A stretch of 4,127 nt of DNA from a virus (lineage: Duplodnaviria > Heunggongvirae > Uroviricota > Caudoviricetes). Position 1 is the first letter of the stretch. Each line of letters begins with the position of its first letter. Position numbers and translations under genes: made by a program. This document shows, piece by piece, positions 961 to 3,832 of the stretch. The stretch lies in IMG/VR virus record IMGVR_UViG_2698536471_000014; one strand, written 5' to 3'. The notes beneath the pieces were generated by a model. The model had not been told where the DNA came from. It ran no database searches and worked only from the letters and a program-made list of their open reading frames with translations.

Positions 961-1713
961 ATGAACCTTGAAGCCTTACCAAAATATTACTCCCCAAAAT
1001 CTCCAAAATTGAGTGATGACGCACCGGCGACAGGCTCTGGTGGTTTAACGATTACGGATGTGATGGCTGCGCAGGGGATGGTGCAGTCGAAAGCACCGCT
1101 TGGGTTTGCCTTATTCCTGGCAAAAGTTGGTGTTCAGGATCCTCAGTTTGCGATTGAAGGTCTGCTCAATTACGCGATGGCACTGGATAACCCGACATTG
1201 AATAAATTGAGTGAAGAAACCCGGCTACAGATTATTCCTTACCTTGTGAATTTTGCCTTTGCTGATTATTCCAGGTCTGCGGCAAGTAAGGCTCGTTGTG
1301 AGCATTGTGCTGGTACTGGATTTCATAATGTATTGCGCGAAGTGGTGAAACACTCCAGAAGCGGGGAATCTGTTATCAAAGAAGAGTGGGTGAAGGAACT
1401 ATGTCAGCATTGCCATGGTAAGGGAGAAGTCAGCACAGCGTGCAGAGGGTGTAAGGGTAAAGGTATTGTCTTGGATGAAAAAAGGACCCGGCTTTATGGC
1501 ACACCTGTTTATAAGATTTGTGGGCGTTGCAATGGAAAACGGTTTAGTCGTTTACCAACCACACTGGCGCGGCATCATGTCCAGAAGCTGGTACCGGACC
1601 TGAGTGATTATCAGTGGTATAAAGGATATGCAAATGTCATTGATAAACTGGTTACAAAGTGCTGGCAGGAGGAATCTTACGCTGAAGCACAATTGAGAAA
1701 GGTGACGAGATAA
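961..1713 (+). CDS. quuQ: Late-gene antiterminator Q (lambda-Q family, QuuQ-like), 250 aa
   Basis: GGAGAA SD 5-6 nt upstream of ATG 961. Protein shows blocks recalled from lambda Q (SPKSP...SD...TDVMAA, FA(F/Y)ADY(S/C)RSA, CGRC, Q/KC..EES) and four CxxCxG motifs (CEHCAGTG, CQHCHGKG, CRGCKGKG, CGRCNGKR). Lies directly upstream of a PR'-like promoter. Stop TAA at 1711-1713. Confidence 0.85.
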   Translation: MNLEALPKYYSPKSPKLSDDAPATGSGGLTITDVMAAQGMVQSKAPLGFALFLAKVGVQDPQFAIEGLLNYAMALDNPTLNKLSEETRLQIIPYLVNFAFADYSRSAASKARCEHCAGTGFHNVLREVVKHSRSGESVIKEEWVKELCQHCHGKGEVSTACRGCKGKGIVLDEKRTRLYGTPVYKICGRCNGKRFSRLPTTLARHHVQKLVPDLSDYQWYKGYANVIDKLVTKCWQEESYAEAQLRKVTR

Positions 1714-1744: not shown

Positions 1745-1785
1745 TTGCATTTTTCAAAAAATATGGATAAAATTTTTTCAACGAT
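1745..1785 (+). promoter_or_regulatory. PR'-like sigma70 late promoter with promoter-proximal pause element (Q engagement / qut region)
   Basis: -35 TTGCAT (1745-1750), 17-nt spacer, -10 TAAAAT (1768-1773), then tttttcAACGATGGG (AACGAT at 1780-1785). This parallels the lambda PR' arrangement as I recall it (TAAATT-tgactc-AACGATGGG), where AACGAT is the -10-like sigma-dependent pause signal. Confidence 0.6.
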
Positions 1786-1819
1786 GGGCTTTGTATACCC
1801 GAAGTTAAGAAAAAGTAGA

Positions 1820-1843
1820 AAACCCGCTGATGAGCGGGTTTTT
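1820..1843 (+). terminator. Rho-independent terminator, tR'-like, ending a short PR' leader transcript
   Basis: Stem AAACCCGCT (1820-1828) / AGCGGGTTT (1833-1841) with loop GATG, followed by a T-run to 1843. About 60 nt downstream of the predicted start site. Confidence 0.7.
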
Positions 1844-2135
1844 GTGCTTTAAATAGGGTAATAGAGATGTTGAATCTCATTACGGGATTCATGTTAGTTT
1901 ACTTATTATTTATCGGGTGACTTTGTTTTTTGCCTGATGTTTAAAATGCTTTCTTCCAGTACAATGTCCATAGATACAATGAGTCTGCTTATTATATTAT
2001 TAGCAGAGCTATTAAGGTCAAAGTACAGCATAAGCTTTTAAAGCCAATCAACCAGTCATCAAGACAGACGGGTTTATTCATGAAAACTCTCCATGTTTGA
2101 TTCGATGGGGCTTGAAGTTAAAGCTTTAATATAGC

Positions 2136-2348
2136 TCATGAAAGGTAAACATTGGCAGCTGATGGTCCACGCAGACCATTTATCCGGCAAAATTCCACGC
2201 GTAATCCGGTGGTAATTTCTTCTGCATCGCGGAGATTGAGCGCTGAAACATGAAGCTGGACATCGATACGACCATCGGATGGGGTTATAAGACCTTTGCC
2301 GCTTTTGCCGTCAAAGGTTTTGAGAATTCCTGTCATTTTACGGGACAA
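2136..2348 (-). CDS. cspF: Cold-shock-domain protein, CspF/CspH-like (70 aa)
   Basis: Translation [27 protein letters not shown]...[13 protein letters not shown] has CspA-family length and architecture. Start is TTG (complement of 2346-2348) with AAGGA SD 6 nt upstream on the minus strand; the in-frame ATG four codons in is 18 nt from the SD. Lacks the aromatic RNP1 residues seen in CspA/CspB, as expected for CspF/CspH. Confidence 0.85.
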
Positions 2349-3011: not shown

Positions 3012-3146
3012 TCAGGAAAAGTATGCTAACCATTGTGGTGAAGTGCAGGTTTGCTGCATGAATAGTTTTACAGCAGAAGCTAACTGCTGGCATAGCAAAA
3101 CAAAGTGCGTAAGTGGATGACTCCCACAAAAAGTACCACAATATTA

Positions 3147-3168
3147 AACCCGCTCAGGCGGGTTTTTT
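3147..3168 (+). terminator. Rho-independent terminator, potentially bidirectional, between the cspB unit and the minus-strand small ORF
   Basis: Stem AACCCGC (3147-3153) / GCGGGTT (3158-3164) with loop TCAG, followed by TTTTTT on the plus strand. On the minus strand the same hairpin is followed by TTTAATATT, a weaker U-tract. Confidence 0.7.
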
Positions 3169-3616: not shown

Positions 3617-3832
3617 ATGAAATCAATGGATAAGTTAACAACAGGTATCGCCTATGGCACATCGGCTGGTAATGCTGGTTTCTGGGCATTGCAGTTACTC
3701 GATAAAGTAACTCCGTCACAGTGGGCTGCAATCGGTGTGCTGGGTAGTCTGGTATTTGGCTTGCTGACGTACCTGACAAACCTTTATTTCAAGATTAAAG
3801 AAGACAAGCGTAAGGTTGCACGGGGAGAGTAA
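3617..3832 (+). CDS. essQ: Phage-21-type class II holin / pinholin (S21-like), dual-start antiholin and holin
   Basis: [71 protein letters not shown]: two hydrophobic segments and a basic C-terminus, closely resembling S21/EssD as recalled. GGGGTGAGGA SD upstream of ATG 3617; second in-frame ATG at 3626 (M1-K-S-M4 dual-start motif). Stop TAA at 3830-3832. Confidence 0.9.

Follow-up and report, generated by a model that had tools for sequence, protein, structure and literature searches.

A Probable Q-Dependent Late-Gene Cassette of the Lambda Type in a Qin-Like Prophage of Escherichia coli

Late-Gene Switches of Lambdoid Phages

Work with the Q protein of phage lambda provides the model for the kind of late-gene control considered here (PMC9388147, PMC4005639, PMC9191641). 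Lambda Q loads from a Q-binding element (QBE) that adjoins the pause element, and a repositioning of sigma region 4 is described (PMC9388147). The pause element itself consists of a -10-like AACGAT at +1 to +6 followed by a discriminator-like GGG (PMC4005639), and the positions at which polymerase pauses have the consensus TNYG (PMC9191641). Transcription from lambda PR′ terminates at +193. Nickels and colleagues reportedly found in 2002 that sigma region 4 uses a -35-like TTGACT located one base upstream of the lambda pause element.

A second close relative is the P-late/qut/t-late region of phage P22 with its gp23 (AF527608), which belongs to the same Q family and is as compact as the locus described below. 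Its annotation has the 5′ nucleotide at the first A of AACGATGG, with the terminator following 31–59 nt downstream, for a leader of about 60 nt. Unlike the present locus, however, P22 has a short, lambda-type Q, a lambda-type spacer (TTTTTGAATAAAGTTGGG) and the TTGACT element.

Other systems resemble the locus in some respects. StxS of the Shiga-toxin phages is likewise a constitutive, prematurely terminated late-promoter transcript that is present in lysogens (PMC7547250), but its primary transcript is predicted to be 258 nt long and is processed to 74 nt (PMC7547250), and it has no sequence similarity to the leader described here. The Q21 and Q82 cassettes also combine a Q gene, a promoter, a sigma-dependent pause and a terminator, yet their Q proteins are of unrelated families, the present Q belonging to neither, and their binding sites are organized differently; Q21, for example, binds a direct repeat as a dimer (PMC9388147).

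A Late-Gene Cassette in a Qin-Like Prophage

The DNA analysed here, a stretch of 4127 nt referred to as the window, comes from an E. coli lambdoid prophage that is Qin-like. Its features from the upstream end to the end of the cassette are as follows:

96–947: DUF968 gene
961–1713, plus strand: Q antiterminator gene (ydfT/quuQ type, 250 aa), lambda-Q family (Pfam PF03589, E = 7.8e-53)
1745–1750, plus strand: -35 hexamer TTGCAT, matching the consensus TTGACA at 3 of 6 positions; TTGC is invariant among relatives
1751–1767, plus strand: 17-nt spacer TTTTCAAAAAATATGGA, putative QBE
1768–1773, plus strand: -10 hexamer TAAAAT, matching the consensus at 5 of 6 positions
1774–1779, plus strand: TTTTTC, the six bases between the -10 and AACGATGGG, variable among relatives
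1780, plus strand: predicted transcription start at the first A of AACGATGGG, spaced as in lambda and P22 and corresponding to the dRNA-seq start of the K-12 copy
1780–1788, plus strand: sigma-dependent pause element AACGATGGG, with a -10-like AACGAT at +1 to +6 and a discriminator-like GGG
1780–1806, plus strand: candidate 5′-terminal RNA hairpin, AAC(G)/(A)GUU plus UGGG/CCCG
1790–1798, plus strand: pause-site region, with RNA 3′ ends expected at +17/+18 (1796/1797) and minor ones at +14 and +19
1792–1797, plus strand: TGTATA
1819–1850, plus strand: intrinsic terminator tR′, with stem 1819–1828/1833–1842, loop GATG and a U-tract from 1839

These features very probably make up a Q-dependent late-gene cassette (PR′, QBE, pause element and tR′) of a Qin/SfV-type lambdoid prophage. 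A late promoter with a sigma-dependent pause and a tR′ terminator was also the core of an initial annotation made from the sequence, and it is borne out by the motifs at the coordinates above, by their conservation, by the family of the Q protein and by published data on the K-12 copy.

When the region is aligned with lambda PR′, as the initial annotation had proposed, the spacing is base-for-base identical, lambda reading TTGACT-17-TAAATT-TGACTC-AACGATGGG, and P22 has the same layout. Much like lambda, the locus combines a PF03589-type Q with a fixed order of -35, 17 nt, -10, 6 nt and AACGATGGG, an expected pause at about +16 to +18, an intrinsic terminator that precedes the lysis genes, and a 5′ segment whose bases complement the pause element. 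It differs from lambda in its leader (64–68 nt versus about 193 nt), in 6 of the 17 positions of the spacer, in an additional CxxC...CxxC insert in the arm of Q, and in the insertion of cspF, cspB and ynfU between tR′ and the holin gene. The TTGACT element of lambda also has no counterpart in the window, where 1773–1778 reads TTTTTT (TTTTCC or TTCTCC in relatives). Since this element occurs only in lambda, P22 and two further loci (L122 and L156), it is not a family-wide feature.

The promoter lies just downstream of Q, on the same strand, with 31 nt between the Q stop codon and the -35. It had been described as a near-consensus sigma70 promoter; the positions, the spacing and the -10 bear this out, but the -35 does not, and a consensus promoter scan of the window did not list the site at 1745–1773. 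In relatives, the -10 reads TAAGAT, TAGGAT, TATAAT or TAATGT, and only T-12, A-11 and T-7 are invariant. The 9-mer AACGATGGG alone is unremarkable, with 0.83 matches having at most one mismatch expected per window. The composite TTG-N20-TANNNT-N6-AACGAT occurs once in the window and in none of 200 shuffles.

On the lambda model, sigma70 RNA polymerase would start constitutively at A1780, after which sigma region 2 would re-bind AACGAT(GGG), +1 to +9 of the non-template strand, holding a scrunched polymerase with an RNA of 17–18 nt. Without Q, the polymerase would escape and terminate at the 1819–1842 hairpin, releasing an RNA of 64–68 nt. With Q, the product of 961–1713 would bind the spacer at 1751–1767 and load onto the paused complex, rendering it terminator-resistant; the modified polymerase would then pass tR′ and the cspF/cspB/ynfU region with its terminators, including that at 3146–3165, and reach the lysis genes from 3617. 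For the present locus, we infer both the binding of Q to the spacer and the Q-dependent read-through. Clearly, such a switch is an ordinary case of a well-known textbook system and leaves the known mechanism unchanged; its value is that the very common Qin/SfV-type prophages gain a correctly placed late-gene switch.

Distribution and Conservation of the Cassette

The cassette is widespread. The segment 1600–2000 of the window, which runs from the last part of Q across the module into the DNA behind it, has matches in 2180 of 5426 complete E. coli genomes and is 100% identical in strain 2013C-4974. In MG1655, the module of the Qin prophage differs at very few bases between the -35 and the terminator, and the cassette occurs in sequenced phages as well, including SfV, mEp460, Ayreon and Stx2c phages. 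A wider survey of IMG/VR confirmed 594 stretches as relatives of the window Q, of which 80 loci (at least 97% identical) were kept. The IMG/VR loci, the phage records and the K-12 Qin prophage together gave 49 distinct variants of the 145 bases that follow the Q stop codon.

The conservation pattern in these variants is the one that the mechanism predicts, the invariant bases being those that sigma would read. Within the pause element, A+2, A+5, T+6 and the GGG are fixed in all 49 variants. The sequence AACGATGGG is identical to that of lambda and stands at the lambda PR′ position with the same spacing, as had been claimed for it. Farther along, TTTG at +11 to +14 is conserved, while +15 to +18 is TATA in the window versus TATG in most relatives.

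Phages cease to resemble one another just past the terminator, at window position 1846, so that Q, promoter, pause element and terminator travel as one module. One locus (L089) has a Q of only 40% identity and a different spacer joined to a window-type leader and terminator. Another (L084, 2254–2453) is a natural hybrid in which a Qin/SfV-type Q, spacer and -10 are joined to a lambda 6S-type leader exactly at AACGATGGG. Three loci labelled as a Veillonella parvula bin (L096), a Bacteroides metagenome bin (L116) and a Chryseobacterium isolate (L135) carry enterobacterial-type Q cassettes with 93%, 40% and 42% identity to the window Q, respectively; these labels probably reflect mis-binning or contamination.

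Genes Downstream of the Switch

Beyond the cassette, the window contains the following:

2136–2348, minus strand: cspF
2649–2864: cspB, with a cold-shock leader of its own (Rfam cspA thermoregulator, 2488–2927)
3146–3165: terminator behind cspB
between the 3146–3165 terminator and essQ, minus strand: ynfU
3617–3832, plus strand: holin gene essQ (Pfam PF04971 and the annotation of an identical genome), the first lysis gene that read-through would reach
from 3837, after essQ: ydfR

Late genes therefore follow the module on the same strand: essQ and ydfR lie in the window, and the lysozyme and Rz genes lie further downstream in a genome identical to it. The switch had also been proposed as the gate into the csp genes, which is only partly the case. 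Read-through would run in the sense direction for cspB; this gene has its own cold-shock leader. For cspF, which is encoded on the opposite strand, and for ynfU, it would be antisense. The thermoregulator match of cspB is full-length (157 bits) and, together with the gene's own terminator, points to cspB as an independently regulated insert within the late operon.

It is conceivable that the cassette is a working fossil, in which the signals still fire but Q is absent or inactive, or the late operon is broken, so that nothing is gated. The closest K-12 relative is indeed the cryptic prophage Qin. Moreover, the one genome that is identical to the window has an IS66-family element (ISEc8, with an internal stop in its transposase; L001, 8960–11272) between ydfR and the lysozyme gene; since this interrupts the lysis cassette, lysis may no longer follow from the switch there. 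This reading appears somewhat unlikely, however, because the Q reading frame of the window is intact and, as mentioned above, the same cassette is found in SfV, mEp460, Ayreon and Stx2c phages.

Published Data on the K-12 Qin Copy

The copy of the cassette in K-12 allows these predictions to be compared with published maps of RNA ends. In NC_000913.3, sequence-based prediction places its start at 1642422(-) and its end near 1642360(-). The offset from NC_000913.2 to NC_000913.3 at this point is presumably +1976 (an IS1, 1 bp and an IS5), so that a dRNA-seq start at 1640446(-) in the older coordinates equals 1642422(-), the first A of AACGATGGG. In the sigma70-affinity RNET-seq table of Sun et al. 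2021 (PMC7876045), which gives NC_000913.2 coordinates for a greA greB deletion strain, this same 1640446(-) is the nearest dRNA-seq start (Thomason et al. 2015, via PMC7876045) for four minus-strand pauses. The strongest are at 1640429 (score 6881) and 1640430 (score 5783), 17 and 16 nt from the K-12 start, respectively, with weaker ones at 1640433 and 1640428 (13 and 18 nt). Across the whole sheet for this strain, the pause at 1640429 occupies the 12th row from the top, and among distal pauses it is the 4th. The main text of the paper (PMC7876045) does not mention a prophage, and the start site is absent from the Cappable-seq supplements in either coordinate system.

A matching 3′ end appears in supplementary file 1 of a Term-seq study (Adams et al. 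2021, PMC7815308), where 1642356(-) is listed at least twice as an "orphan". Of the three growth-condition sheets, at least two contain the entries, to judge by file position, which fits the two LB sheets; one entry has an average read count of 103,591 (PMC7815308). This 3′ end corresponds to about 1847 in the window, within the U-tract region, and the surrounding sequence is that of the K-12 terminator; some of these ends could belong to transcripts extending through Q. The K-12 products would thus be paused RNAs of 17–18 nt and a terminated RNA of about 67 nt.

For the promoter and the pause, then, the mapped start and the observed promoter-proximal pause both come from the K-12 copy. A start elsewhere and a hairpin that fails to terminate were two of the outcomes that the initial annotation had set against itself, and in the K-12 copy neither is the case. 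In fact, the module accounts for two unexplained K-12 entries, namely an "orphan" Term-seq 3′ end and one of the strongest sigma70-dependent pauses in the genome.

The Term-seq file also lists a second same-strand 3′ end at NC_000913.3 1642188(-), about 170 nt past tR′, at a hairpin (CTGCTTATTATATTATTAGCAG) corresponding to window positions of about 1985–2013. It suggests either that some polymerases pass the K-12 terminator, which has one T fewer in its U-tract, or that there is a separate start.

A similar compact module occurs upstream of essD in the DLP12 prophage (L174, 1700–1780; NC_000913.3 about 577229, plus strand). There, TTTACG, 17 nt, TATGCT and 6 nt are followed by a start A inside AAGAGTGG and by a terminator about 35–50 nt downstream. 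The DLP12 start carries some of the highest-ranked sigma70 pauses of the RNET-seq table, including two of its top four rows.

Terminator and Leader RNA

An intrinsic terminator stands between the promoter and the late genes. Its stem-loop, AAAACCCGCT/GATG/AGCGGGTTTT at 1819–1842, is followed by TGTGCTTT, and the predicted terminated RNA of 64–68 nt would end at 1843–1847. The 71-nt leader folds at -25.5 kcal/mol compared with -12.7 ± 3.1 kcal/mol for shuffles (z = -4.2). Together with the K-12 3′ end, this agrees with the strong terminator that had been placed at about 1820–1843. The terminator is kept in relatives, where its stem takes several forms that differ in sequence; a U.G to U-A change is among the differences.

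The leader, put at about 60 nt when first described, had been singled out as far shorter than the lambda 6S RNA of about 194 nt. It is indeed shorter than that of lambda, but it is not unusual, being the norm of the family. Leaders of about 45–75 nt are found in most relatives, among them loci of Enterobacter, Atlantibacter, Buttiauxella, Klebsiella, Cronobacter, Xenorhabdus and others. Lambda, SF6 and some loci of Serratia and Pectobacterium have long leaders of the 6S type. The 194-nt 6S leader of lambda is thus the exception within its own family.

Another possibility is that the terminated RNA of about 65 nt is itself the main product, serving as a stable, constitutive small regulatory RNA like StxS. 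The K-12 Term-seq 3′ end, with its average read count of about 1e5 in one sheet, would suit such a role, and PR′-tR′ RNAs can be Hfq-binding regulators (PMC7547250). The make-up of the leader would suit it too, with a 5′ hairpin, an A-rich linker (AAGAAAAAGUAGAAAA) and a U-tailed terminator. Against this, no target, Hfq-binding or phenotype data were found for the RNA, the linker is not conserved among the variants, and Rfam has no family for the leader, all of which makes this reading improbable. The stretch of linker and terminator at 1807–1850 does resemble Hfq-binding small RNAs, with a linker that differs from variant to variant. The only overlapping Rfam match, Phe_leader, was sub-threshold (25 bits against a gathering score of 55) and was taken as chance.

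The TGTATA Sequence and the Nature of the Hairpin

The initial annotation had pointed to TGTATA at 1792–1797 as a second -10-like sequence. It is present there, T/A-rich and located where polymerase pauses, and could on these grounds be a second sigma-dependent pause signal. Yet it lacks the A at hexamer position 2 and the T at position 6, the bases that sigma reads, and most of the 49 variants have TGTATG, TGTGTG or TATGTA at the site. Moreover, the pauses seen at +17/+18 are those predicted from the element at +1 to +6. Being unconserved and without the two bases that sigma needs, TGTATA was rejected as a second pause signal, a role that is very improbable.

A reading frame for a leader peptide (1784–1852, MGFVYPKLRKSRKPADERVFVL) begins with an ATG inside AACGATGGG. 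It was also set aside, having no ribosome-binding site and a leader of only 4 nt; its lambda counterpart stops after MG and that of P22 after 6 codons.

Hardly credible is the notion that the hairpin is only a bidirectional terminator shared by the Q operon and cspF-ynfS, with promoter- and pause-like motifs that are incidental: the hairpin does look bidirectional, with U-runs on both strands, a minus-strand listing in the terminator scan, and cspF and a ynfS-like ORF converging on it, but K-12 has a mapped start and a very strong sigma70-dependent pause exactly where predicted, conservation is position-specific for sigma-contacted bases at a spacing identical to that of lambda and P22, and a bidirectional role is compatible with tR′ without replacing it.

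The Q Protein and Its Putative Binding Site

In a Q-dependent cassette, the spacer and the Q protein should belong together. Judged by its sequence, the window Q is a full-length homologue of lambda Q. It matches the lambda Q structure in PDB 7ubm (E = 3e-38) over residues 1–120 and 160–250, which flank the extra insert, and it also matches the lambda Q structure 4mo1. Literature searches for quuQ or ydfT returned nothing relevant.

The extra CxxC...CxxC insert is carried in the zinc-ribbon arm. Residues of about 113–160 (window 1297–1440) hold four CxxC motifs, CEHCAGTG, CQHCHGKG, CRGCKGKG and CGRCNGKR, and the arm gives a sub-threshold match to DnaJ CXXCXGXG. Lambda and P22 aside, all eight of the other relatives aligned have this longer arm; the short Q of lambda and P22 is the exception.

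The spacer is nearly invariant in the 49 variants, which is unusual for a promoter spacer. A comparison of Q proteins and promoters across genera, using a separate set of 80 loci from other genera and eight further phage loci, paired each spacer class with a distinct C-terminal sequence of Q:

Spacer TTCAAAAAA..TGG (window type): Q C-terminal motif DYQWY.GYA
Spacer TTGAATAAAAT: Q C-terminal motif QPTWSR
Spacer TTCGGAAAAAT: Q C-terminal motif SKTTCYDKY
Spacer GTGGCGAAAAT: Q C-terminal motif PETTWRRNF
Spacer TTCCGGAATCTG: Q C-terminal motif ATWEKSVK

The co-varying segment spans Q residues of about 195–225 (window 1543–1635), in a C-terminal region whose lambda counterpart, from about residue 153 onward, belongs to the DNA-binding body of Q (PMC9388147). 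The N-terminal part of Q and the leader, by comparison, do not follow this pairing and are exchanged independently (L086–L173). Xenorhabdus loci, for example, have the N-terminal part and the leader in common, yet their spacers and C-terminal motifs differ together. The pairing supports the spacer as the putative target of Q, and the spacer classes, each with its own type of Q, offer naturally matched protein–site pairs for studies of specificity.

A Candidate Hairpin at the 5′ End of the Leader

The pause element may have a further role in the RNA. Across the lambda-Q family, the bases from +1 to +5/+7 are complementary to those at about +19 to +27, and it is possible, though a tentative proposal that falls somewhat short of an even chance, that the pause element doubles as the 5′ arm of a family-wide, conserved RNA hairpin starting at +1. 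Within the window, an A at 1803 (+24) weakens the hairpin and the minimum-energy fold switches to a neighbouring one; the hairpin of the K-12 copy folds at -6.5 kcal/mol. Complementarity of this kind is also seen at L002 787–811, at L086 1402–1424 and at many of L087–L173.

Sister loci differ by compensatory double changes. P22 has AACGA/UCGUU where a Kluyvera locus (L128) has AAUGA/UCAUU, and the same double change separates a Proteus locus (L116) from a Providencia locus (L131). Lambda has AACGA/UCGUU where a Serratia locus (L144) has AACAA/UUGUU, and further such pairs are L094 with L038 and L142 with L139. The partner combinations seen are AACGA/UCGUU, AAUGA/UCAUU, AACAA/UUGUU and AACGG/CCGUU.

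Statistical comparisons point the same way. In 46 representatives of less than 80% identity, pairing of the 5′ segment with its own partner averaged -5.36 kcal/mol versus -4.62 kcal/mol (sd 0.2) with permuted partners, a value that none of 5000 permutations reached. When the first 32 nt were folded, the best structure had at least four of nucleotides 1–7 in pairs for 78% of representatives, versus 46% (maximum 67%) for shuffled sequences. RNAalifold predicted no consensus structure for 25 diverse leaders. When the four outer pairs were tested explicitly in the alignment of these 25 leaders, 99% of cells held standard pairs, two of the four pairs changed on both sides, none of 500 shuffles reached the score, and slid controls were at most 48% paired. 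The frequent G.U pairs argue for an RNA structure rather than a DNA palindrome.

Since the partner changes together with the pause element, one sequence would be under two constraints, as DNA read by sigma and as RNA structure. Stabilizers of RNA 5′ ends classically take the form of a hairpin that begins at +1, and we infer that the present one would protect the 5′ end of both the leader RNA and the long late mRNA. The literature searched, which excluded the early 6S RNA papers, holds no description of a 5′ hairpin in late leaders.

A small inverted repeat, TCGCC-GAAGAT-GGCGA, lies at 1721–1736, directly after the Q stop codon, and its pairing is poorly kept within the close family. At the equivalent place after the Q stop, lambda, P22 and several other genera have TGCCA-CGGA-TGGCA, and a Serratia locus (L126) has TTGGCA-CGGA-TGCCGA, in which pairing is preserved.
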